From a virus (lineage: Duplodnaviria > Caudoviricetes), in the IMG/VR virus record IMGVR_UViG_3300037467_000112, positions 1 through 51,342 of that record: a stretch of 51,342 nt of DNA; one strand, given 5' to 3'. Each line of letters begins with the position of its first letter. Within the stretch, counting starts at the first letter, position 1. This document shows, in pieces, positions 1 through 14,612 of the stretch. The notes beneath the pieces are model-generated. The model had not been told where the DNA came from. It was given only the letters and a program-made list of their open reading frames with translations, and searched no databases. The translations under genes were made by a program, and so were the position numbers.

Positions 1-127
1 ACAATAAAAGAAGGGAAGACAAAATGTCTTAACGTCTTGAATAGTAAACAGCGAGACTAACTAACTGTGAAATGGTAACAGTTAAAGTTGTGCAACGCTA
101 ACTGCGTTAGCTACCAAGAGAGTAACC
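1..127. repeat. Terminal direct repeat, copy 1 (identical to 51216-51342); probably a circular-assembly overlap
   Basis: Exact 127-nt identity with the last 127 nt; 127 is a common assembler k-mer length. Confidence 0.95.
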
Positions 128-144
128 CTCTTCGTAATACTCTT

Positions 145-173
145 ATTATAACATATTTTATAGTAAAAGTAAA
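145..173 (-). promoter_or_regulatory. Putative sigma70-type promoter reading across the junction into the structural arm
   Basis: Minus strand reads TTTACT-17 nt-TATAAT with a TG extension (ATGTTATAAT); points toward the first structural gene (51117) on the circular map. Confidence 0.6.
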
Positions 174-583
174 TAGCTGGAAGACAGTAATTGAGAATAA
201 ACACATAAAAATATGGTATAGCCGCCAAAGAGTCCAGCAGTGAGGCCAGTCGCAAGACCCAGCCCGTTATTCCAGAATTTCTTGGAGAAAATTTTTGATG
301 ATAGAGTGCAATGATACGGCACCCCCGGCCCCCCGGCGTGGCCACTCATGTTTGTTCCGGGTGCGTTCTCCTCGCGTTCACGGTGCGTTCGCCTGTAACA
401 GTTCCAGTCACAGTTCCAGTTCGCTGTCCTTCAGTATTCCCACAGCAACAAACATCCGCTTTACTGTATTCATCAGCATCATCCAGCTTGATCGCCCCCA
501 CATATATGGTAGTCTCAACTTGTCACCAAAGAAGTGTGACAGCAACGGCCCAGTCTAATGGGCTTGAACAGGAGCAGACAGAC

Positions 584-811
584 ATGAGCGTCACCGTCGA
601 ACAAGCAATCGAATACGTCCGCAAGATGATGAGCACTGATGACTACGGTACCGTCGGTGAATTGGTGCTGACTCACAACAGCAACCGTGAGTACGAGAAA
701 GGTAAGCTGATGCGTACGATCAGGATGGAGGACGATACCGGAGTGCTCGGATATTGGGATGTGTGGATGGAAGACCTCGGCGATGGTCCGTTCGTCTACG
801 GTGAATGGTAA
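584..811 (+). CDS. Early hypothetical protein (75 aa)
   Basis: ATG 584 follows AGGAG; the ORF-track start at 311 has no RBS. Confidence 0.7.
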   Translation: MSVTVEQAIEYVRKMMSTDDYGTVGELVLTHNSNREYEKGKLMRTIRMEDDTGVLGYWDVWMEDLGDGPFVYGEW

Positions 812-842
812 AGCCTCTCACGTCTGACTGAAAGGAAGACAC

Positions 843-923
843 ATGGTCACGCTCTTTGAACAGTACGCCAAGATCAAGCAACTTCAACGCAAGGTGAAGC
901 AACAGCAACAGAAGAACAAGTGA
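843..923 (+). CDS. Small early peptide (26 aa, MVTLFEQYAKIKQLQRKVKQQQQKNK)
   Basis: AAAGGAAG RBS upstream; stop lies just before hammerhead 1. Confidence 0.45.
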   Translation: MVTLFEQYAKIKQLQRKVKQQQQKNK

Positions 924-933
924 ACATCGCTAG

Positions 934-996
934 TGTCGAAAGCGTCGTGAGACGCTCTGATGTAGCTGGCTACTGCATCACTGATGAGACAAGCCA
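934..996 (+). ncRNA. Type II hammerhead ribozyme 1 (predicted cleavage after C957)
   Basis: Stem II TGTC/GACA; GAAA 938-941; stem III GCGTC-GTGA-GACGC; UC 956-957; stem I TGATGTAG/CTGCATCA; CTGATGA 981-987; loop TGGCT can pair with 3' AGCCA 992-996. Confidence 0.92.
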
Positions 997-1014
997 AGAT
1001 GAGGCCTGACTACC

Positions 1015-1293
1015 ATGACTAAGAAACAACTGATGCGTGAAGTGAAGCGCATCCTGTCTCAGATCAACTACCGCATCGACCACAGTGTTGAGTACAATGA
1101 ATACAGGTGCGCTCCGACTGATGTGAACAAGGAGACTGCTGAACGCATTGCGTACTACACGGATGATCTTCGAGACTGTGCCGCAACTGCGATCATGAAC
1201 AGGAAGCACGAAAGCAATGTGAACAATGATCCGACCGAGTACGGCCGCCTTCATGAACTGTATCTGGAGTTGAACAACTACTTCCAAGACTAA
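1015..1293 (+). CDS. Early hypothetical protein (92 aa) flanked by the two hammerheads
   Basis: ORF with GAGG RBS; no recognised family. Confidence 0.75.
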   Translation: MTKKQLMREVKRILSQINYRIDHSVEYNEYRCAPTDVNKETAERIAYYTDDLRDCAATAIMNRKHESNVNNDPTEYGRLHELYLELNNYFQD

Positions 1294-1303
1294 ACATCAC
1301 TAG

Positions 1304-1387
1304 TGTCGAAAGCGTTGGAGTGTGGTTGTTACTGCACTCCTTCGCTCGGTTGACTGTTGGCTACAGCAACCCTGATGAGACAAGCCA
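1304..1387 (+). ncRNA. Type II hammerhead ribozyme 2 (predicted cleavage after C1347)
   Basis: Stem II TGTC/GACA; GAAA 1308-1311; extended stem III GCG..GGAGTGTGGT/ACTGCACTCC..CGC; UC 1346-1347; stem I GGTTG(A)CTGT/ACAG-CAACC; CTGATGA 1372-1378; loop TGGCT with 3' AGCCA. Confidence 0.92.
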
Positions 1388-1401
1388 CATGGAGACTAGT
1401 C

Positions 1402-1653
1402 ATGGCTAAGGGTTATTCTGTCTGCACCAATGAAGATGGGTACATGGTGGAGCACATTCACTGTGAGTACATCAGCGAGTCAGCAACGGCAGCGCATCAC
1501 ATCAGCGCTCGCCTGAACAAGCCGGTATTCGTGATCAACCTGTACTGTGGAAAGTGGGTTGTTGACGTATTCATCCGCGGTGAATGCGTACTGTCGGGTA
1601 AGTTCCACAGTCAAGAGGACGCTATGTACTGGTGTCTGTCGGTCACTCACTGA
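1402..1653 (+). CDS. Early hypothetical protein (83 aa)
   Basis: ATG 1402 follows GGAG; the ORF-track start at 1357 lies inside hammerhead 2. Confidence 0.7.
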   Translation: MAKGYSVCTNEDGYMVEHIHCEYISESATAAHHISARLNKPVFVINLYCGKWVVDVFIRGECVLSGKFHSQEDAMYWCLSVTH

Positions 1654-1740
1654 ACATCGTTAGAACACAGCACAGTAACGCAAGCATCTTGTATCTCTAT
1701 CATCAATCGAGCCCACATGGCGCAGCAAAGGAATACAGCA

Positions 1741-2010
1741 ATGCACGATAATCAATTCATGATCCTGGTGAAGTACAGGCGAGACATTACTCGTCCGGGT
1801 AAGGCGAGCAAAAGGTTTCGAGTTATACGGACAGGTCTACTCAAGGACAAAGCAATCGACATTATTTGTCAGCATGTGTATCGGTCTGCTGATTACGGTA
1901 TTCTTCCGTCTGACTGGCCTGTCCGTGACTGGAGAGTAGTGTTGGATATTGGTAGAACGTACAAGACAGTGTGGTCTTGGACGCATGGTGACTGGCCTGA
2001 ACAGGACTAA
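1741..2010 (+). CDS. Early hypothetical protein
   Basis: ORF; ATG 1741 follows AAGGA (1717 is an alternative start). Confidence 0.6.
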   Translation: MHDNQFMILVKYRRDITRPGKASKRFRVIRTGLLKDKAIDIICQHVYRSADYGILPSDWPVRDWRVVLDIGRTYKTVWSWTHGDWPEQD

Positions 2011-2027
2011 TCGAAGGAGAGACAACC

Positions 2028-2180
2028 ATGCTTAAGTTGAATGATCCCACAGTAATCTTGCTTGGTCTTTGGGTGCTTGGTTTTGGCGGTGCTTACGTCA
2101 AGACAACCTTGGACAAGCTGCAACAAGCCAAAGACGATGCAGCCCGTTACCGTACAGCGTACAAATTGGTTCGTCGTTAA
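2028..2180 (+). CDS. Small membrane-anchored protein (50 aa)
   Basis: AAGGAG RBS; hydrophobic VILLGLWVLGFGGAYV followed by a helical tail; not in the ORF track. Confidence 0.65.
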   Translation: MLKLNDPTVILLGLWVLGFGGAYVKTTLDKLQQAKDDAARYRTAYKLVRR

Positions 2181-2233
2181 ACCGTGCTTGCACTCAAGCA
2201 CACTAGCAACTCAAGTCGAAAGAACTGAGACTA

Positions 2234-2446
2234 ATGCAAATGAACCTGATCTTTGACAGCAAAGCCTGTCCGTCCGTGGTTGTTGACTACTACGATATAC
2301 CCGAATGGCTTAACTTGGGCTATCGTACATGGAATGTATTCGTCTGTACCGGATACGACAACTTACCTTGGATCGGTACACTTGAGCGCATTCAACATGA
2401 GACAGGATGCTTGACGCTTCTGTCTTTGCTCTATGGGGAGAAGTAA
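2234..2446 (+). CDS. Early hypothetical protein (70 aa)
   Basis: ORF tightly packed with its neighbours. Confidence 0.55.
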   Translation: MQMNLIFDSKACPSVVVDYYDIPEWLNLGYRTWNVFVCTGYDNLPWIGTLERIQHETGCLTLLSLLYGEK

Positions 2447-2448
2447 TC

Positions 2449-2574
2449 ATGTTTGGATTTGGCAACATCACCTATGACGACACAGTTGATCCTGACTTCG
2501 ACGACTTCACGGACATGAGTGAAGAAGATTTGTTGTTGTTTAAGGAACTCGAAGCTGAACTAGAGGAGAAGTAA
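2449..2574 (+). CDS. Very acidic small protein (41 aa)
   Basis: GGAG RBS; MFGFGNITYDDTVDPDFDDFTDMSEEDLLLFKELEAELEEK. Confidence 0.6.
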   Translation: MFGFGNITYDDTVDPDFDDFTDMSEEDLLLFKELEAELEEK

Positions 2575-2576
2575 TC

Positions 2577-2831
2577 ATGTCTAAGGACTGGAAATACCGA
2601 GTGCTCTATGTAGTACCGGCCGAGTACAACTGCCGTATTCACATACATGAGCGAAGGTTTCATGACTGGTATAAGTGTTTTGATTACGCATTTGACATAC
2701 TGAACTTCGGTAAAGCGTCAGTATGTATTCAGGAACGTGTGTCCCGTGGTCATTGGTGGAATAGATTCGCCAGTAAACCGGACAGTCATGGTGACGGTTG
2801 GGTGCATCCCGATACTGATGTAATACAGTAA
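2577..2831 (+). CDS. Early hypothetical protein (84 aa)
   Basis: GAGGAG RBS and ORF. Confidence 0.7.
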   Translation: MSKDWKYRVLYVVPAEYNCRIHIHERRFHDWYKCFDYAFDILNFGKASVCIQERVSRGHWWNRFASKPDSHGDGWVHPDTDVIQ

Positions 2832-2835
2832 CACG

Positions 2836-2877
2836 CTAGTTGAGGGGTAGTACAGATACAGTATTGCCCCTCACTAG
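2836..2877 (+). terminator. Long hairpin after the first early gene block (terminator or processing site)
   Basis: CTAGTTGAGGGGTAGTAC-AGATACA-GTATTGCCCCTCACTAG; no clear U-tract. Confidence 0.45.
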
Positions 2878-3009
2878 TCTGCCTTGCATCTCTATCATCA
2901 TTCACACGGCACGGGGCGGAGCACGGTAAGGTGTTGAAAAGGCACAGCTATTTGACTCCTGTGCTGCCTGCACACACGCGCGCGCGTTCCGATTCCCGCG
3001 CAATCAGGG

Positions 3010-3145
3010 TTTATCGTTATTCGATAAAGGTTTATCGTTAAACAATATCAAGTAACACCGTTGTTACACAAGGCACCCCTGATTTATCGTTTTTCGATAA
3101 GGGTTCGTCGTTTGTCGATAAAAGTCGATCACGCTTTCGTGATAA
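3010..3145. repeat. Array of TTATCG-N5-CGATAA palindromes (operator- or iteron-like)
   Basis: Copies at 3010-3028, 3084-3100 and 3104-3122 (imperfect), a half-site at 3031-3037, plus GTAACA-CCGT-TGTTAC and ATCACG-CTTT-CGTGAT. Confidence 0.7.
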
Positions 3146-3261
3146 CAAGCCTGTATCTTTCCTCGGCGGGGTATGAGCATATGGTCGGTGTCGGCGGCGG
3201 AAACGTCCCGGCCGCGCCGCGAGGGTCCTCCGGCGTGACTTCACATACCGGGAGGCGTGTC

Positions 3262-3720
3262 ATGGCCGCGAGGCTTGGCAAGCGCGAACGGGCGGCTCGC
3301 AAAGCGCTTCTCGATGAACGTCGGGCGTGCGTTGCGGCGAACCTGAACGCGCCTCAACCGGAACCGCAACGGGTTGCCGTCCGCACTAAGTCGGGCGCAC
3401 TCACGGTCATTCGTGATCGGTCGGGTTCCAGTCAATCAACCGAGCGTCTCGGCTCCTGCTACGGGTTGTTCAGCGATCCGCGCGGGAACGTGATTAACGG
3501 CCGCACTGTGAACGGCAAGATTGTGCGTGGTAAGGTTGTCAGAAATGACGGCCCGTCCAAGCCGATGCGGTTCCTGTGCGTCGATGCGGACGGCAATTCG
3601 TGGGGCGGTTTCGACCGTCTCAAGGATGCGACGGACGCCTGTACGCGACTGTCCGCCCGGCTCAAGCGGCCTATTCGGCTGCAAGAGAACCCTCTTGCCC
3701 TCGCTCGGGTGAAAGGGTAA
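3262..3720 (+). CDS. Highly basic protein (152 aa) with an N-terminal Arg-rich motif
   Basis: GGAGG RBS before ATG 3262; MAARLGKRERAARKALLDERR; stop codon abuts structured RNA 1. Confidence 0.75.
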   Translation: MAARLGKRERAARKALLDERRACVAANLNAPQPEPQRVAVRTKSGALTVIRDRSGSSQSTERLGSCYGLFSDPRGNVINGRTVNGKIVRGKVVRNDGPSKPMRFLCVDADGNSWGGFDRLKDATDACTRLSARLKRPIRLQENPLALARVKG

Positions 3721-4255
3721 GCTACCTCACAACTGGCGCGGGGCCTCACGGTCCTACGCCGCGTGTACGCTGCACGATAACTAAGCGAAGGTTAAAGGTG
3801 GAACCGCGCGTGCGGTGGATGCCCCTAGCTCACTTGTGGGTGTGGGGCTGAAGCTGCGCCGGACCGTGCTGCAATGCACCCTCTAGGTTCGTAAACCCTT
3901 GCCAGTGTTGCGCTTTCGCGCACATTGGTTCTCGCGCTCGCGCATGGTAAGGCTGCACACGCCAGACGTGTCTCCTTGCTTGCCCGTTCGTGTCTGCTGC
4001 TCCGCCGGTCTAGCACCCGGCGTGGGATGCACACAGGCACGCTCGGAACCGGTCGCACGTACGCTAAGGGACCCGCCCTCGAACTCTGGAGGGCGGGGAT
4101 ACCACGATGAATGCCGCACATGGCGCTATGCTGTGTGCGGTGTTTGTCGTTAGCGTTAGGGGCACACGTTGCGAGCGTGGCTTGGAACGGCTGTAAAGGC
4201 TTAACCATTGTTTCGTGTGCTCCTTACCCTAGCGACAAGCGTTGTGCTAGGTGGC
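3721..4255 (+). ncRNA. Large structured non-coding/leader RNA 1 (about 535 nt), family unknown
   Basis: The two ends pair (GCTACCT-CACAAC 3721-3733 with GTTGTG-CT-AGGTGGC 4241-4255) and enclose many G-U-containing helices; no credible ORF inside. Confidence 0.7.
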
Positions 4256-4275
4256 CAAACAAAGGAGACACCTAC

Positions 4276-4947
4276 ATGGCCGAACTGCCCAAACTGCTTC
4301 CCGCGAAGCAGATCTCCGCTCGCAACGTCACCATCGGCGAGACGGCGGACAACCTCGACAAGCTGGTGTTCGAGAACGCCATCCAATGCGCCCTCCACGC
4401 GCAGCAGCACGGTGACGTCACGCTCATGGCAGACCTGCTGAACCGCGTCGGCGGCACGAAGCGCAAGGGCTTCAACGCCGAAGGCTTCATCAAGTGGGTG
4501 TACGATCACACGCCCATCCGCGACGGCGGCAAGGACGCGAAGGGCAACCGGGCGCTCGGCTTGCTCAAGCGCGGCATCAACAAGGACTTCCCCGCGAAGC
4601 CGGACGAGCCGGACTCGGTGGCGTGGAAGATCGAGGAAATGATCGCCACGCCGTACTGGAACTACGCCCCGTCGGCGCCTCCGCGTGCTCGCCCGCCCCT
4701 GTCGGCGGACGAAATCCAGAACAACATCATCAAGTTCGCGGACCGGATCGAGACGGCCGTGAAGCAGGACAAGTTCGAGGGCGGCGAAGGCGAGGCGCGC
4801 AAGGCCATGACGGCGCTCGCCGCCGCGGTCAAGGCGTACAACGAGGCGATGCGGACCATGCAGGAAGCGCCCGACACGGCGCACCTGCGCGATCCCCGCC
4901 GCGAGGAGCACCCGTCCTTCAACCAACCCGTCGCCGGCACCGCCTGA
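4276..4947 (+). CDS. Phage protein (223 aa), probably highly expressed
   Basis: AAAGGAG RBS; very strong G/C-ending codon bias; HAQQHGDVTL segment reminiscent of conserved podovirus early proteins. Confidence 0.85.
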   Translation: MAELPKLLPAKQISARNVTIGETADNLDKLVFENAIQCALHAQQHGDVTLMADLLNRVGGTKRKGFNAEGFIKWVYDHTPIRDGGKDAKGNRALGLLKRGINKDFPAKPDEPDSVAWKIEEMIATPYWNYAPSAPPRARPPLSADEIQNNIIKFADRIETAVKQDKFEGGEGEARKAMTALAAAVKAYNEAMRTMQEAPDTAHLRDPRREEHPSFNQPVAGTA

Positions 4948-4998
4948 TCCAACTCCGCCTCCCAAGGGCAGAGAGTAGTGAGTAAGCACAAAGCGTAA

Positions 4999-5029
4999 GC
5001 CCCCGGTGCAACCGTGCCGGGGGTTTTCC
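4999..5029 (+). terminator. Rho-independent terminator
   Basis: GCCCCCGGTGC-AACC-GTGCCGGGGGT followed by TTT. Confidence 0.7.
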
Positions 5030-5057
5030 TGTGTGCTTAGCGGAAAGGGTACACGCT

Positions 5058-5303
5058 ATGTCTCAATTCAATGTGGCCCCGAGCTTGACGCCGGGGCTGT
5101 ATGTCGTTGTTCGCAACAATGGCGAGACGACGTACATGTCGCTGTTCGGGTTCGGCACTGGCCGCAGGGCCAAGTGGGTGACGAACAAGGAAAGCGCGTC
5201 ACACTTCCGTGAGGCTGAGGCCGTGCGGTGGTGCGACAGCCTGAACCTTTCGTTAAGGCGTGGGCAGGGGGATAGGCATCTCTATCATCAGCCCAATGCC
5301 TGA
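5058..5303 (+). CDS. Hypothetical protein (81 aa)
   Basis: ATG follows AAAGGG. Confidence 0.65.
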   Translation: MSQFNVAPSLTPGLYVVVRNNGETTYMSLFGFGTGRRAKWVTNKESASHFREAEAVRWCDSLNLSLRRGQGDRHLYHQPNA

Positions 5304-5496: not shown

Positions 5497-5500
5497 GTGC

Positions 5501-5876
5501 TACCGCACTTGGGGAATAGTGCGTTTGTTGAGTTGCGTACACTGGCCGAAGTGGCTGGTGGGTGCAGGTCGGGGGGACACAACCCCATACCAAAACGGTG
5601 TGGGGCCGACCTGAGTAAGCGGTAAGGGAGCGCCCCCGCGTCTTCCGAACCCGTCGGCAGAAAACTGCTCATTCTTTTTCAAGCCGGGTGCAACCTTTTT
5701 TACAACGTTGTTTGTAGTGAGTACACATGCGTGCCTCTTGGTGCATATCGAGAGGAAAGCTCGCTCCGTGTGTGTACTCTCTACAGCCAACGTGGCTGTG
5801 CGGTACGTAAGCCGTTGATCTTACGTCGTCTGACGGGGGTTGGACGTTAAACAACCAACTCCAACGAGGGTTGGCT
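5501..5876 (+). ncRNA. Structured non-coding/leader RNA 2 containing a c-di-AMP (ydaO)-riboswitch-like core
   Basis: TACCGCAC 5501-5508 pairs with GTGCGGTA 5798-5805; long helix 5705-5731/5767-5793; blocks GGGGGGAC, TGGGGCCGAC, GGTAAGGG and CCGAACCCGTCGGC occur in ydaO order. Confidence 0.6.
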
Positions 5877-10089: not shown

Positions 10090-10737
10090 ATGAAAGTTTT
10101 CATCCAAGGTCCCGGTGCTGGGGCATACATCATGATGTTCCTGCGGGCTGGCTTCAAGGGGGCAGCCAGTGTGGACGATGCGGACATTGTTTGCTTCACC
10201 GGTGGTGAGGACGTTCACCCGCATTACTACAACGAGGACCCCCTTCGCTGCACGTACTTCAACCTGAAGCGAGACGAAGAGGACGTCAAGGTCTTCAACC
10301 GCGCCAAGGAACAGCAGAAGTTCATGGTCGGCATCTGTCGTGGCGGTCAGTTTCTGAACGTCATGGGCGGCGGCAAGCTGTGGCAAGACGTGGACGAACA
10401 TGGCCGGGAACACTGGCTGCTGGACATGCTGACCGGGGCCAAGATTTGGGTCACCAGCACGCACCATCAGCAGATGATCCCCGGCGACAAGGCTGACGTA
10501 TGGGCCACTGCGAACTGCTCCAACAACAAGTACGGCTACGGCAAGGAGTGGTCCCGCAAGAGCCCTGAGGCTGATGCCTTTGACGTGGAGGTCTGCTGGT
10601 ATCCCCACATTCGTGCTCTGTGCTTCCAGCCTCACCCGGAAATGTACGGCGCTTCGGAGGGGTGTATCAACTACTTCTTCCAGTGCCTGAAGAACGCCAT
10701 GAAGATCGTTGAGGAGCAAGACGAATGTGTGGCCTAG
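10090..10737 (+). CDS. Class I glutamine amidotransferase / peptidase C26-like
   Basis: FTGGEDV, GICRGGQ nucleophile elbow, STHHQ, QPHPE. Confidence 0.9.
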   Translation: MKVFIQGPGAGAYIMMFLRAGFKGAASVDDADIVCFTGGEDVHPHYYNEDPLRCTYFNLKRDEEDVKVFNRAKEQQKFMVGICRGGQFLNVMGGGKLWQDVDEHGREHWLLDMLTGAKIWVTSTHHQQMIPGDKADVWATANCSNNKYGYGKEWSRKSPEADAFDVEVCWYPHIRALCFQPHPEMYGASEGCINYFFQCLKNAMKIVEEQDECVA

Positions 10738-12041
10738 TCGGCGTAGCCGGGTCAATCGACAATCAGGACATTGGAGCATTCAATGATCTGCTGTTGGCCA
10801 ACGTGGTTCGTGGAAAACACAGCACTGGTGTTGCTGGTGTGGATCGCGGCAATCGTTCCCACCTGATCAAGTGTGTCGGTGGTCCGCTGGACCTTCAGGA
10901 ACAGAAAGGCTACGACAACGTAGTTCGACAGGACAAGAAGGTTCTGATCGGTCACAATCGTCATGCCACCGTGGGCGGGGTGTCCAAGGTCAACGCCCAC
11001 CCGTTTGACTTCGACAATCTTGTTGGGGCTCACAACGGCACGGTCGACAAGTTCAGGCTCAAGGATCACAACGAGTTCCCCACGGACTCGGAAGCCCTGT
11101 ACAACAACATGAACCTGTTTGGCCCCGAAGAGACGATCAAACTGATCAGTGGGGCGTGGGCCTTGACGTGGTACGACAAGGGTTACAAGACCATCAACCT
11201 GATCCGCAACAAAGAGCGGCCCCTCTTCTACACGCTTTGTGACGAAGGGAAGTCGCTCTGGTGGGCCAGTGAAGCAGGTATGCTGCGCTGGTGCCTTGAG
11301 CGGAACCGCATCGAGGTCAGCAAAGTGTACTTCCTTGAGGAAGACATGATGCTGACTTGGGAGGTTCCAGCATACGGCAAACCCTTTTGCGAACCCGAGG
11401 CGACAAAGGTTGAAGGGTATAAGTACTTTCCACCAGTGGTGGATAGGCGGGCATCGTCTGCCGTAAACTGGAACCAACGTGGAGGTAGCCAACCCGGCGG
11501 CCCCCCTTTGTCCCTTCCCAAGGGGGCCTTGTCGACCCCGACGAACTCCCCTGGGACGATGAGATCGACGACATCTTCGGGACAGGATGGTCAGCAATCG
11601 AAGACGTCCTCCAACGTCGTGCCGCTCAACAGCTCGAACTTGCTCTCGAACAAGAAGTCGAGCAACGAAAGCGAGAACGAGAAGGACGGAAACCTGTCGT
11701 CTGGTGTGATAAGTACCATCGAAAGGGGAAGACAGGGAAAACCTTCGGAAGCCGAAGCTGGAAACGATGGTCAGCAAAGCACTGGCCGGGCCTTGACCTT
11801 GAGTGACCTGAAACTTCAGGAAGCTGGCCGAGGAACCAAGATCTATAAAGACAAGCACAACGGTCGTATCATTACGAAGAAGGTGTTTGCTAACCTGACC
11901 ATAAAAGGGTGTAGCTGGTGCTGCCGCTCGCCTGATTACGGCGAAGACTTCTATGTGTTCGGAACTCCGTCTGACAATGAGTTCCTTTGCGAGGACTGTT
12001 CCGTCGACCCGGACGTCCAAGCTTGTGCCCACATCCACTAG
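10725..12041 (+). CDS. Class II (Ntn) glutamine amidotransferase with a Ser-rich linker and C-terminal Zn-finger
   Basis: MCGLVG N-terminus, RG.HSTG, GHNRHAT, NAHPF, HNGT, TDSE; C-terminal CSWC..CEDC. Confidence 0.9.
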   Translation: MCGLVGVAGSIDNQDIGAFNDLLLANVVRGKHSTGVAGVDRGNRSHLIKCVGGPLDLQEQKGYDNVVRQDKKVLIGHNRHATVGGVSKVNAHPFDFDNLVGAHNGTVDKFRLKDHNEFPTDSEALYNNMNLFGPEETIKLISGAWALTWYDKGYKTINLIRNKERPLFYTLCDEGKSLWWASEAGMLRWCLERNRIEVSKVYFLEEDMMLTWEVPAYGKPFCEPEATKVEGYKYFPPVVDRRASSAVNWNQRGGSQPGGPPLSLPKGALSTPTNSPGTMRSTTSSGQDGQQSKTSSNVVPLNSSNLLSNKKSSNESENEKDGNLSSGVISTIERGRQGKPSEAEAGNDGQQSTGRALTLSDLKLQEAGRGTKIYKDKHNGRIITKKVFANLTIKGCSWCCRSPDYGEDFYVFGTPSDNEFLCEDCSVDPDVQACAHIH

Positions 12042-12074
12042 GTCTGACGACCTGATCATCACGAAGGAGAGTAA

Positions 12075-12902
12075 GTGGAAATTCTGATTGGTGCTGACCC
12101 CGAAGTGTTCGTGCGTAACCCGAACGACCAGAAGTTCGTCAACGCTCACAACATGATTCCGGGTGACAAGAAGACCCCGTTCGGGGTGAAGGACGGTGCT
12201 GTTCAGGTGGACGGCATGGCCCTTGAGTTCAACATCAACCCGGCCAAGTCGGCTGACGAGTTTGTCGGGAACATCAAGTCGGTGTACGAGCAACTCAAGG
12301 CGATGGTGCCCGGCTACAACGTCGTGGCCGAGCCGGTGGCCGTGTTCGACAAGGGTTACTTCGACCAACAGCCGACCGAATCCAAGGAGCTGGGGTGCAA
12401 CCCCGACTTCAATGCTTGGACCGGCAAGGTCAACAACCCCCCGAAGGGTGGCGACAAGCCGATGCGTACGGCGTCGGGTCACATCCACATCGGGTGGACG
12501 AAGGACGAAGATCCTAACGATCCGGTCCACTTCGCTGACTGCTGTGCGCTGGTGAAACAGCTCGACTACTTCCTCGGTCTGCACAGCATCCTGTGGGACA
12601 GGGACAACCGCCGTCGGTCCATGTACGGCAAGGCTGGTGCGTTCAGGCCCAAGCCGTACGGTGTCGAGTACCGGGTCATGTCAAACGTTTGGCTGACGAA
12701 CGAAGAGCTGATGCGGTGGGTGTTCGACCAAACCCACAAGGCTGTCGACACCCTGCTCAATGGGGAGAACTTCGCGGAAACCCACAACAGTCAGGCTGCG
12801 GGTATCATCAACAGCAACGAAGCTGGGTGGGAAGCGTACTACCGGTTCCCCGGTGTCGGAACTCTTCCCAAGCACCTGAGGAACCTGCAGAAGGCCGCTT
12901 AA
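12075..12902 (+). CDS. phiEco32-like COOH-NH2 ligase type 2
   Basis: IGADPEVF, DGMALEFN, GCNPDFNAW, SGHIHIG, YGKAGAFRPKPYGVEYR. Confidence 0.9.
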   Translation: MEILIGADPEVFVRNPNDQKFVNAHNMIPGDKKTPFGVKDGAVQVDGMALEFNINPAKSADEFVGNIKSVYEQLKAMVPGYNVVAEPVAVFDKGYFDQQPTESKELGCNPDFNAWTGKVNNPPKGGDKPMRTASGHIHIGWTKDEDPNDPVHFADCCALVKQLDYFLGLHSILWDRDNRRRSMYGKAGAFRPKPYGVEYRVMSNVWLTNEELMRWVFDQTHKAVDTLLNGENFAETHNSQAAGIINSNEAGWEAYYRFPGVGTLPKHLRNLQKAA

Positions 12903-12906
12903 CACA

Positions 12907-13527
12907 ATGCGATACGAGAACGTTGAAGAGGCCGAGTCCCGGCTGCGGTCCACTGTCGTCATGTACGACGGTAAGCCGGTCTGGGTTGATCATGTGGTCC
13001 GGGGAACCGGTCCGTCTGGGCTGTCCGTTCAGATCTATTCCCTGCCCCGGCTGAGGGAAAAGCGGGAGGTTGACCTGTTCGACCCCAAGCTGAACATGCG
13101 GAACATTCCGTTGGGGTATGTGAACTACGGTCATGACGCCCTGTACCTGACCCGGATGCCGGCCCGTCGTTTCAAGCAGGGTTTGAACTCCGAGAACGTT
13201 CACATCCCCCGGGACAAGATGTTCAACGAGCACGGGGACCGGATCAATTGGGGTACGATCTACTCCAGCCAGGGGTTTGCCGATTCGATGTCGGGTAAAT
13301 TTCCCAGCTTCGAAGAGGCTGCGAAGAAGCTGGCCGACGAATCTGAGTTCAAGTCTGTCGCCTTCAGTCGGGTGTTCGCGCTCTCCCGAAACCCTCTCGG
13401 CCTGAACATCTTGCTTTACAAGGGCAACGAGGTTGCTTGGTCTGAAAGCCACGCCTTCAAGCTGCCCGGCAACAAGAGTTTCCTGCAACAAGTGATCGAA
13501 CAACACGGAGTCAAACTCGCGTCATGA
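12907..13527 (+). CDS. Conserved-looking hypothetical protein of the ligase cluster
   Basis: 206-aa ORF between two ligases; LGYVN and R.P.R..KQGL motifs. Confidence 0.8.
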   Translation: MRYENVEEAESRLRSTVVMYDGKPVWVDHVVRGTGPSGLSVQIYSLPRLREKREVDLFDPKLNMRNIPLGYVNYGHDALYLTRMPARRFKQGLNSENVHIPRDKMFNEHGDRINWGTIYSSQGFADSMSGKFPSFEEAAKKLADESEFKSVAFSRVFALSRNPLGLNILLYKGNEVAWSESHAFKLPGNKSFLQQVIEQHGVKLAS

Positions 13528-14612
13528 GCAACAAGGCAAAGGGCTGGAACCTTCCTGTCACGGAGCTGATGGGTCAGCGTGGTGTCAAGGAAGGTGAGGT
13601 TGGCATCGAGATCGAAGCCGAAGGATACCTGCTTCCTGCCGCTGTCAAGGGTACGTATTGGACTGTACACGACGACGGCAGCCTTCGCCTTCCGCCTGCC
13701 AAGGTTGTCGGTGCGTTCCCTGTGGCCGGTAGTGCGTACGAGTACGTGCTCAGGCAGCCTGTGAAGCGGGACAAGGTTGAGGCGGCTCTGGACAATCTCA
13801 CTAAGGCCCTGACCGAGAGCAAGGCCGAAGTGGTCATGTCCAACCGCTGCAGCGTCCACATTCACCTGAACTGTCAGGGTATGTTGATGCGACAGGTGTA
13901 CAATCTTATCACTCTGTCGGGCATCTTCGAAAGCCTGTTGTCGGAATACTGTGGTGACGACCGGATCGGCAATCTGTTTTGTCTGCGACAAAGCGATGCT
14001 GAGTTCATGGTCAGAGCGCTGGCTGAATGTCTGACTACCAATCAGTACAATTGGTTTGTCAATGACAATCTGCGCTACGCGTTCCTGAACGTTACGTCTC
14101 TTCCGAAGTACAACTCGGTCGAGTTCCGTGGTCTGCGCGGTACTGTGGACAAGCCGACCATCGAGACTTGGGTTCGGATGCTGCTGTCCATGCAAGACGC
14201 AGCCAAGACGTACAGCAGCCCGGCTGAGATCATCCAAGAGTTCAGTGTCCGCGGTCCGGTGGCGTTCCTGATGAAGATCTTTCCGAAGGACTATCCGTGG
14301 TTCATGAACCGACAGAACTACGTTGATCGCATGTACGGCGGAATGCGCCTGATGCAGGATCTTGCCTTTGCCGTGGAGTGGGGTGAGGTCGTCAAGGCGG
14401 AGCCCGCCAAGGAATACAACGTCGTCGTCGAGCAGCAGGTGGTTGACGATTTAATGCCGGATTTTGATGAAGATGTTGATGATGGTCCCTTCCACTTCGA
14501 CATTGAAGCTGACCAACTTCTAGTGCAAGTTCAGCAAAACCCGATGCCGGGTTGGCGGCAAGTTCAAGTCCCGCCCGTGCTCCGTCGTGCAGTGGAAGAA
14601 GGAGACATTTAA
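13524..14612 (+). CDS. Putative amidoligase (amidoligase-2 family)
   Basis: GIEIE, DGSL, EYV, CSVHIHLN, RY..LN, VEFRG. Confidence 0.88.
   Translation: MSNKAKGWNLPVTELMGQRGVKEGEVGIEIEAEGYLLPAAVKGTYWTVHDDGSLRLPPAKVVGAFPVAGSAYEYVLRQPVKRDKVEAALDNLTKALTESKAEVVMSNRCSVHIHLNCQGMLMRQVYNLITLSGIFESLLSEYCGDDRIGNLFCLRQSDAEFMVRALAECLTTNQYNWFVNDNLRYAFLNVTSLPKYNSVEFRGLRGTVDKPTIETWVRMLLSMQDAAKTYSSPAEIIQEFSVRGPVAFLMKIFPKDYPWFMNRQNYVDRMYGGMRLMQDLAFAVEWGEVVKAEPAKEYNVVVEQQVVDDLMPDFDEDVDDGPFHFDIEADQLLVQVQQNPMPGWRQVQVPPVLRRAVEEGDI

Follow-up and report, generated by a model that had tools for sequence, protein, structure and literature searches.

A new conserved hairpin in the proposed structured leader of a phrog_1448 gene in five uncultured phages

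Organization of the locus

The DNA examined here, referred to as the window, is the whole sequence of IMG/VR record IMGVR_UViG_3300037467_000112, a complete virus record of 51,342 base pairs (bp). Two genes on its + strand, called A and B below, are separated by a structured spacer, and the element of interest is a long hairpin at the 3' end of this spacer. A preliminary description had viewed positions 3721-4255 either as one large, closed, multi-helix RNA or as a regulatory leader for the gene that begins at 4276. The finding reduces to a new conserved hairpin within a structured leader, present in five uncultured phages. The main features of the locus are the following, with lengths in amino acids (aa) or nucleotides (nt).

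3262..3720, + strand: gene A, a small basic protein of 152 aa counted from ATG and beginning MAARLGKRER (this is the conserved part; the listed open reading frame, ORF, starts at TTG 3061)
3721..4275, + strand: non-coding intercistronic spacer, the proposed leader of gene B (the 3721-4255 stretch plus the ribosome-binding stretch), from periodicity, ORF, Rfam and folding tests
4142..4240, + strand: conserved long hairpin with 38 predicted pairs, from its homologues in four other phages, covariation and covariance model R1
4262..4267, + strand: Shine-Dalgarno sequence AAGGAG, 8 nt before ATG 4276, from reading of the sequence
4276..4947, + strand: gene B, 223 aa, a member of PHROG family 1448 (phrog_1448, E 2e-12; function unknown) with extreme codon bias

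The order gene A, gap, gene B is found in five IMG/VR records, namely the window and the records designated G001, L014, L017 and L027. Their spacers are 555, 576, 657, 584 and 382 nt long, respectively. The G001 primase is 66% identical to that of the window, and the terminase in the L027 record is 72% identical. In each of the four other records, the ORF upstream of the gap opens with the motif RxGKxER. A BLASTP comparison between gene A and the corresponding ORF of G001 aligns RLGKRER at the N-terminus with an E value of 2e-4, and five columns of gene A (R, G, K, E and R) are invariant.

The spacer is non-coding and strongly folded

The 3721-4275 spacer is non-coding. Its G+C content is flat across codon positions (0.62/0.64/0.62), as opposed to 0.64/0.44/0.92 in the gene at 4276. 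ORFs within the spacer have no PHROG or Pfam matches. Among 72 open frames taken from the five related gaps there is no significant cross-locus match, the best of 30 rows having an E value of 0.033. A small gene hidden in the spacer was rejected for this lack of family or significant cross-locus matches.

The + strand of the 535-nt stretch 3721-4255 has a predicted folding energy of -263.7 kcal/mol, compared with -223.7 +/- 6.1 kcal/mol for 100 dinucleotide-shuffled sequences (z score -6.51). None of the 100 shuffles folds as well, which bears out the stability that had been anticipated relative to such controls. The - strand gives a z score of -3.24, with one of 100 shuffles as good. A genome-wide background was assembled from 191 positions on both strands (382 windows of 535 nt), with energy regressed on composition. 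The spacer lies 3.9-4.3 standard deviations below the energy expected from its composition, and the most extreme background window reaches -3.4 when regressed on G+C content or -3.2 when regressed on base composition. In the five phages, with the window listed first, spacer z scores are -6.5, -3.1, -6.6, -4.7 and -4.6 for the + strand and -3.2, -3.1, -3.4, -2.7 and -2.5 for the - strand. Thus, values are more negative on the + strand in four phages and equal in one. No spacer sequence of at least 13 nt is repeated elsewhere in the window.

All seven helices quoted in the preliminary description can be read in the sequence. The minimum-free-energy fold uses six of the seven, and it replaces the CCTTGCCA/TGGTAAGG helix by 3901-3913/3918-3929. 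The remark that the RNA family was not recognizable also held up. A search of the whole window with Rfam 15 (4227 models, including ROOL, GOLLD, riboswitches, introns and tmRNA) gives no match at the gathering score. When the threshold is relaxed to E<=10, the region 3500-4500 yields five chance-level hits, the best of which is sucC RNA with 21 bits against a gathering score of 50. Rfam searches of the four related loci return nothing but two tRNAs located elsewhere in L014. These two tRNA genes occupy 4300-4461 of that record, approximately 1.9 kilobases (kb) downstream of its gene B.

Excess stability resides at the 3' end of the spacer

The excess stability is located at the 3' end of the spacer. 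When the last 114 nt are removed, the remaining 3721-4141 segment has z scores of only -2.72 on the + strand and -1.61 on the - strand. The hairpin at 4142-4240 taken alone has z scores of -5.48 and -3.4, respectively. Four elements lie upstream of this hairpin or run into it.

3721..3733, + strand: 5' arm of the 'closing' helix, pairing with 4241-4255 (pair probability 0.97 in the window sequence)
3968..3977, + strand: possible anti-Shine-Dalgarno sequence GTGTCTCCTT, 10 nt perfectly complementary to the Shine-Dalgarno region at 4262-4271, found as an inverted repeat
4072..4097, + strand: G+C-rich hairpin of 9 bp, CCCGCCCTC/GAGGGCGGG (pair probability 1.00)
4104..4150, + strand: G-U-rich hairpin, 12 bp at 4113-4141 and up to 21 bp at 4104-4150, from the predicted fold and inside the most extreme 100-nt window

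The closing helix was the basis for proposing that the entire 535-nt stretch is one closed structure, and this proposal fails. Pairing of the first 45 nt with the 35-nt tail gives a duplex of -18.2 kcal/mol; when the 5' end is shuffled 500 times, 65% of the shuffles do as well or better. The helix is not conserved in the four relatives. The anti-Shine-Dalgarno complement is less easily obtained by chance, as a length of 10 nt is reached in one of 300 shuffles. Comparison of this feature in three relatives with a gene A-gap-gene B module reveals no counterpart in G001, 7 nt in L014 (110 of 300 shuffles are as long) and 8 nt in L017 (35 of 300).

The most extreme of approximately 10,250 windows of 100 nt examined throughout the genome is 4061-4160 on the + strand, which contains the 9-bp hairpin and the G-U-rich hairpin. 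The extended form of the latter overlaps the 5' arm of the conserved hairpin and competes with it. Most of the 25 strongest 100-nt windows are on the + strand of the + arm, and therefore early transcripts of this phage appear to be generally rich in hairpins. A natural variant assembled from sequencing run X6, as one contig spanning 3004-5300, differs from the window at just two spacer positions (4073 C>T and 4094 C>T); contigs from runs X5 and X7 did not reach the spacer. Each change converts a G-C pair in the 4072-4097 helix to a G-U pair on the + strand. As evidence for a + strand RNA this is suggestive but weak, because a C>T change at any paired C gives a G-U pair.

Upstream of the 3' hairpin, the relatives have no sequence or architecture in common. 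MAFFT alignment of the gaps is uninformative, and a search for short motifs across the five gaps finds nothing above a shuffled null. Pairwise blastn among 11 gaps yields alignable sequence solely between Brevundimonas BC and Cd1, which are close relatives of each other. The approximately 420 nt outside the conserved hairpin are lineage-specific stable helices with no conserved fold.

These comparisons make it quite improbable that all 535 nt form one large, independent non-coding RNA with a function of its own, as the preliminary description had proposed for one large multi-helix RNA. The overall z score of -6.5 does make this stretch the most extreme 535-nt window in the genome, and long ORF-free stretches precede B-family genes in many phages. 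However, the closing helix is at the level of chance, no architecture is shared outside the 3' hairpin, and spacer length varies from 382 to 657 nt. Moreover, no promoter or terminator brackets the stretch, and the Rfam models without a match include those of large phage-associated RNAs. A very strong folding score for a whole region can stem from one local element and not from a large RNA.

A conserved hairpin precedes gene B

The hairpin is found in all five module phages, in which it is 93-140 nt long and has 31-48 predicted pairs. It ends 35 nt before the gene B start in the window, and 34, 31, 42 and 20 nt before it in the others. In the window, the lower helix (4142-4153/4229-4240) is separated by a C-C mismatch (4154/4228) from an upper helix that opens GU.A/U.AC. 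The lower helix is near-identical in the five phages, reading ..(U/A)(A/G)UCG(C/U)UAG in the 5' arm and CUAGCGA(U/C).. in the 3' arm. Above it is a single C-C or C-A mismatch, which is replaced by a 2x2 loop in L014. The upper helix opens GUUA/UAAC and then becomes fully different in sequence among the phages, with pairing kept.

Covariation among homologs, which the preliminary description had proposed as a test, is present in this 3' hairpin, as judged from five sequences. With these sequences set out as a ladder fixed at the mismatch, standard pairs fill 106 of 110 cells, and both sides are altered in 13 of 22 pairs. The counts drop to 37-47 cells and 2-5 pairs when the register is slid, and none of 1000 shuffles reaches either of the anchored values. 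In an alignment fitted to covariance model R1, 95.7% of 70 cells are paired and 6 of 15 pairs are changed on both sides; slid registers give 21-43%, and none of 500 shuffles reaches the count.

Model R1 recovers exactly these five sites in 16 sources, with one site per whole record. It finds no site in the Autographiviridae loci, in L015 or in L016. An IUPAC pattern for the hairpin base retrieves from IMG/VR only the two records from which it was drawn. No description of the element was found by full-text literature searches, whose results were examined mostly at the level of abstracts. Based on these sequence comparisons, the hairpin is a candidate for a new phage cis-RNA motif that lies outside every curated RNA family.

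The hairpin was also considered as an intrinsic terminator. This possibility was rejected because the downstream sequence is not U-rich: no U-rich sequence follows the hairpin in any of the five phages, and a terminator scan is empty at this position.

RNA structure or DNA palindrome

Several observations favor a + strand RNA over a structure in the opposite strand. The free energy of the hairpin is lower on the + strand in all five phages, and the spacer z scores point in the same direction. In an arm-against-arm comparison of the five hairpins that does not depend on any fold, 23 G-U-type mismatches are of the kind tolerated by the + strand and 9 by the - strand. The preliminary argument that G-U pairs favor the + strand is therefore upheld to a modest extent, with the qualification that the - strand also folds beyond its shuffles.

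The same element might instead act as DNA. An inverted repeat with CTAG arms could be bound by a protein, form a cruciform, or act as a signal for replication or packaging, with RNA folding as a by-product. As DNA, the conserved base forms an almost perfect palindrome, and each strand folds much better than its shuffles (the two equally well in L014). The reverse strand scores 22-31 bits with R1, and the element has one copy, which would also hold for an origin or packaging site. Against this stand the G-U excess and the lower + strand energies in five of five phages. The pairing of 31-38 bp is also kept despite complete change of the upper-stem sequence and a tip that is variable in an element of 93-140 nt overall. 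Pairing that is kept while sequence changes argues for selection on a folded single strand rather than on two duplex sites, and the fixed distance between the hairpin and the gene B start argues for a role in expressing B. A function exerted by the DNA itself is accordingly judged unlikely.

Distribution of gene B and its upstream gaps

Gene B has 286 remote family members at E<=0.001 among 1.84 billion representatives, and none exceeds 50% identity. A word-index protein search with B recovers only B itself, in five contigs, and tblastn finds Cd1 only; tblastn with A finds no match. An AlphaFold model of protein B has a pLDDT (predicted local distance difference test) score of 84 and no PDB fold match at E<=0.001. 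An alternative gene start at ATG 4111 was rejected. The in-frame extension 4111-4275 has a third-position G+C content (GC3) of only 0.58 versus 0.92 in the gene, and for this reason gene B is taken to start at 4276.

Thirteen loci carrying gene B were examined, a set from which GY3, vB_VpaP_G1, fHe-Yen3-01, Arno160, Babayka and Brevundimonas AA were left out. Nine of them (the five module phages, phi80-18, Cd1, Brevundimonas BC and Paso) have at least 380 nt free of ORFs or annotation directly upstream of B. L015 and L016 are uncertain, as their gaps contain ORFs of at least 60 aa, and RSB1 and JG068 are without such a gap. In Cd1, Brevundimonas BC and Paso, no coding sequence precedes the B homolog, which lies 1.4-1.5 kb from the left end. 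It is the second coding sequence in phi80-18 and RSB1, and in JG068 it is split into gp3 and gp4. In these Autographiviridae the homolog thus occupies the left-end position that gene 0.3 has in T7. The gap before the phi80-18 homolog is 573 nt long and has a z score of -4.4 on the + strand versus -0.6 on the - strand.

Codon usage of gene B tracks the hairpin. GC3 is 0.92 in the window, where the other genes of the phage range from 0.46 to 0.78. It is 0.71-0.84 in the B homologs of the four other hairpin phages and 0.47-0.53 in L015 and L016, where B is present and the hairpin absent. Locus G+C in the hairpin phages is 0.51-0.55.

The position of B-family genes in T7-like phages raises the possibility that the spacer is a promoter cluster and leader of the kind found at a T7-like left end, where these genes come first. 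Consistent with this, B is the first annotated coding sequence in the three phages named above, promoters are annotated upstream in Cd1 and JG068 (where gp1 and gp2 precede the homolog), and the phi80-18 gap has sigma-70-like boxes and islands conserved with Pectobacterium phages. However, 3721-4275 of the window contains no sigma-70-like promoter with 9 of 12 or more matching positions and no alphaproteobacterial-type (TTGAC-N-GCTANAWC) site. Candidate control motifs occur upstream of gene A instead, and the Autographiviridae loci are without the hairpin. This explanation is therefore very improbable for the window. Certain 8-mers shared among loci, such as AACGCTAG, were set aside as promoter-like boxes of alphaproteobacterial phages that are missing from the window.

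A proposed role in expression of gene B

The results show a non-coding spacer that belongs to a conserved module and has its better fold on the + strand. At its end is a covarying hairpin whose position and base sequence are conserved. The alternative proposal of the preliminary description, a regulatory leader for the gene at 4276, fits these results, including the placement of the hairpin 20-42 nt before the start codon in five of five phages. We favor the reading that the spacer is a transcribed, structured leader and that its conserved hairpin acts on the B message at the level of processing, stability or translation, and consider the chances that this is correct to be about even. We infer that the spacer is transcribed within an A-B message, that the hairpin is cleaved or bound, and that B expression is affected as a result.

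Under this model, the locus would be a short early operon comprising a control region, gene A, the spacer as an intercistronic leader, gene B and a terminator. Because the spacer has no sigma-70-like promoter, read-through from upstream is plausible. The 4142-4240 hairpin, ending 35 nt before the B start, would be the single conserved functional element. It might serve as a processing site for a double-strand-specific nuclease of the RNase III type, as a stable 5'-proximal structure, or as a protein-binding operator. In any of these roles it would divide the upstream leader from the B message, whose stability and translation it would determine, and so permit very high expression of this codon-biased gene. 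Very high expression fits because GC3 of B reaches 0.71-0.92 in exactly those phages that bear the hairpin.

For the processing option, the stem has the approximately 20 bp or more plus a mismatch that are typical of RNase III sites, with its 1x1 C-C mismatch 12 bp above the base. RNase III sites are reported as established in lambda, T7 and T3 RNAs, and cleavage by this enzyme is reported to be able to free an occluded ribosome-binding site (PMC5371410). Cleavage in the hairpin could likewise uncouple the ribosome-binding site of gene B from an inhibitory leader containing the 3968-3977 anti-Shine-Dalgarno sequence.

A number of observations weigh against a leader hairpin that controls the B message. 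L016, whose large terminase is 60% identical, has gene B without the hairpin. The anti-Shine-Dalgarno complement was rejected as a conserved feature, as it has no significant counterpart in G001, L014 or L017, and a 12-nt complement (1 of 300 shuffles) occurs in L015, which lacks the module. The covariation comes from only five sequences, in registers that were anchored on their own folds or fitted to the model and so favor pairing. The - strand hairpins also beat their shuffles, with z scores of -3.4 to -7.8, and a DNA-level role is possible because inverted repeats fold on both strands. None of the listed sequencing runs containing the stretch is an RNA run. Finally, the loose specificity of RNase III leaves the near-invariant 10-12 bp base unexplained, whereas a sequence-specific binder explains it better. 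R1 identifies a single site in each of the whole records searched (the window, G006, G007 and G008), unlike the repeated sites that characterize RNase III processing in T7.

The conserved stem base and the single copy are more in keeping with a site bound by a specific protein than with a generic RNase III site. One version of this idea is that a phage protein recognizes the hairpin as RNA, with A as the candidate or B acting on its own leader, and that binding switches on read-through or translation of B in the manner of lambda N and nut or of an operator. Gene A and the hairpin occur together in five of five module phages, and both are missing from the eight other B loci (L015, L016, Cd1, RSB1, phi80-18, Brevundimonas BC, JG068 and Paso). 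B proteins are approximately 30% identical among phages whose hairpin base is nearly invariant, and this base is better conserved than either flanking protein, a pattern that a specific binding site would produce. Just upstream, at 4113-4150, a hairpin with GUUUGUCGUU after it may act as a weak terminator. The basic N-terminus, the only conserved part of protein A, has RxGKxER and further basic residues and resembles the Arg-rich RNA-binding peptides of lambdoid N proteins. However, this resemblance is compositional and finds no support from family, fold or PDB comparisons. A stem with a 1x1 mismatch is conserved instead of a small loop of the boxB kind, although no search with nut models was made, and the co-occurrence of A with the hairpin may reflect common descent of the five phages. 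Control through such an RNA target is judged rather unlikely.

A more specific version is that gene A, the hairpin and gene B constitute an undescribed ribonucleoprotein switch. The Arg-rich N-terminus of A, or alternatively B, would bind the stem carrying CUAG, the C-C mismatch and GUUA and would thereby gate processing, read-through or translation of B. Protein B, whose family stands first in the early region of many T7-like phages, might in that case have a host-takeover or anti-defense role. This is offered as a speculation with little claim to being right.

Relation to known regulatory RNAs

Of the known systems compared, those that the element appears to resemble most in its working are the hairpins that serve in processing and regulation within the early leaders of T7 and lambda. 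Like the RNase III hairpins of T7 gene 0.3 and the lambda N leader, it is a long irregular hairpin in an untranslated stretch, shortly before the ribosome-binding site of what would be an early, highly expressed gene. Its stem of at least 20 bp is likewise sufficient for a double-strand-specific nuclease. In T7, the first-early-gene position of the B family is held by gene 0.3, and an irregular hairpin at approximately 843-911 ends 13 nt before the gene 0.3 start. We take this hairpin to be the R0.3 RNase III site, although the T7 record has no such annotation. There are also differences. No sequence similarity exists, and the window has one copy instead of an intergenic series. RNase III has no need of the strong sequence conservation seen at the base of this stem, and cleavage of the hairpin is a prediction.

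The lambda N/nut system and translational operators such as the T4 RegA and gp32 sites offer a second parallel, in that a small basic early protein is encoded beside a conserved hairpin preceding the next gene and the two co-occur. Protein A differs in having no homology to N or to any family, and the hairpin has an extended stem with a C-C mismatch rather than a small boxA/boxB-like loop. ROOL, GOLLD and other large RNAs in Rfam are comparable in their 500-800 nt size class, phage context and high predicted stability, but no Rfam model matches the spacer and its relatives do not share a multi-helix architecture. The 5'-terminal stabilizer hairpins of ompA-type leaders are short and located at the very 5' end of the mRNA. 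They resemble the present case as stable structures in the long leader of a very highly expressed gene, as gene B would be, but the window stem is approximately 100 nt.

T7 and lambda provide the classic examples of long structured leaders that contain processing hairpins, and there are few descriptions from phages other than such models. Here, a covarying hairpin without an Rfam family precedes a phrog_1448 gene, the first early gene in many Autographiviridae and one with a very strong codon bias in the present SIO1-like phages from soil. If the hairpin controls B, it would provide a handle on how the first host-takeover protein is timed and boosted in uncultured podoviruses, and a new cis-regulatory RNA family would be added.

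Neighboring signals and genome context

Two further features flank the module.

3010..3143, no strand assigned: candidate control region upstream of gene A, with TTTATCG-N5-CGATAA(A) palindromes at 3010-3028 and 3083-3100 and hairpin ATCACG-CTTT-CGTGAT at 3128-3143, from reading of the sequence
5000..5027, + strand: intrinsic-terminator-like hairpin CCCCCGG-N10-CCGGGGG followed by TTTT, 53 nt past the gene B stop, from reading of the sequence

The palindromes and small hairpin of the first region are possible operator sites. CGATCACGCTTTCGTGATAACA is also present upstream of gene A in L017, where the 22-nt context of the 3128-3143 hairpin is identical, and G001 shares CGTTTGTCGATA. A 15-mer, GCATCTCTATCATCA, occurs twice on the + strand, at 2886-2900 and 5276-5290. 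Similar strings, GATCTATCA(T/C), occur upstream of gene A in L014 and L027, and this may be the -10 region of a phage promoter. The terminator-like hairpin lies inside a strongly folding window (4971-5070). A 15-mer, GCATCTCTATCATCA, occurs twice on the + strand, at 2886-2900 and 5276-5290.

Gene A itself has no PHROG, Pfam or PDB match, and its G+C content by codon position is 0.66/0.54/0.69. In the X6 variant, 21 of the 26 differences over 2.3 kb fall within 45 nt (3295-3339), inside gene A and after the conserved N-terminal motif. This cluster looks like a recombination patch or a hypervariable segment.

The window is a complete genome of an SIO1-like podovirus, an assignment made because its terminase is 64-69% identical to those of the SIO1 group (Roseobacter phage SIO1, Celeribacter P12053L, Lentibacter ICBM phages and CRP phages). 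Genes up to approximately 27 kb are on the + strand and include those for glutamine amidotransferase, amidoligase, primase-helicase, DNA polymerase and ribonucleotide reductase. Tail, portal and large terminase genes are on the - strand from 27.7 kb. The record has a 127-nt terminal repeat, most likely the assembly overlap of a circular or permuted assembly. The runs that contain 3721-4255 are soil and rhizosphere metagenomes. No phage RNA polymerase was found among the large ORFs scanned in the window, and a tRNA search found none. GenBank phages have no DNA similarity to 3000-5200, and searches of IMG/VR with protein B or protein A reveal no close relatives.

Several other aspects of this genome were observed in passing. 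G+C content rises from approximately 0.45-0.50 in 1-3100 to 0.60-0.69 in 3150-5000, with a step near 3100-3150. An extra early module of the window phage may be represented by the low-G+C block at 311-2831, which consists of small ORFs; in G001, only approximately 640 nt separate the start of the + arm from gene A. A cluster of glutamine amidotransferase-like and amidoligase genes resides at 10725-14612 within the replication arm. Downstream of gene B, a second ORF-poor stretch at approximately 5497-5850 has many strong + strand hairpins, among them a long hairpin at approximately 5700-5790, and contains terminator-like sites at 5504-5523 and 5656-5669.

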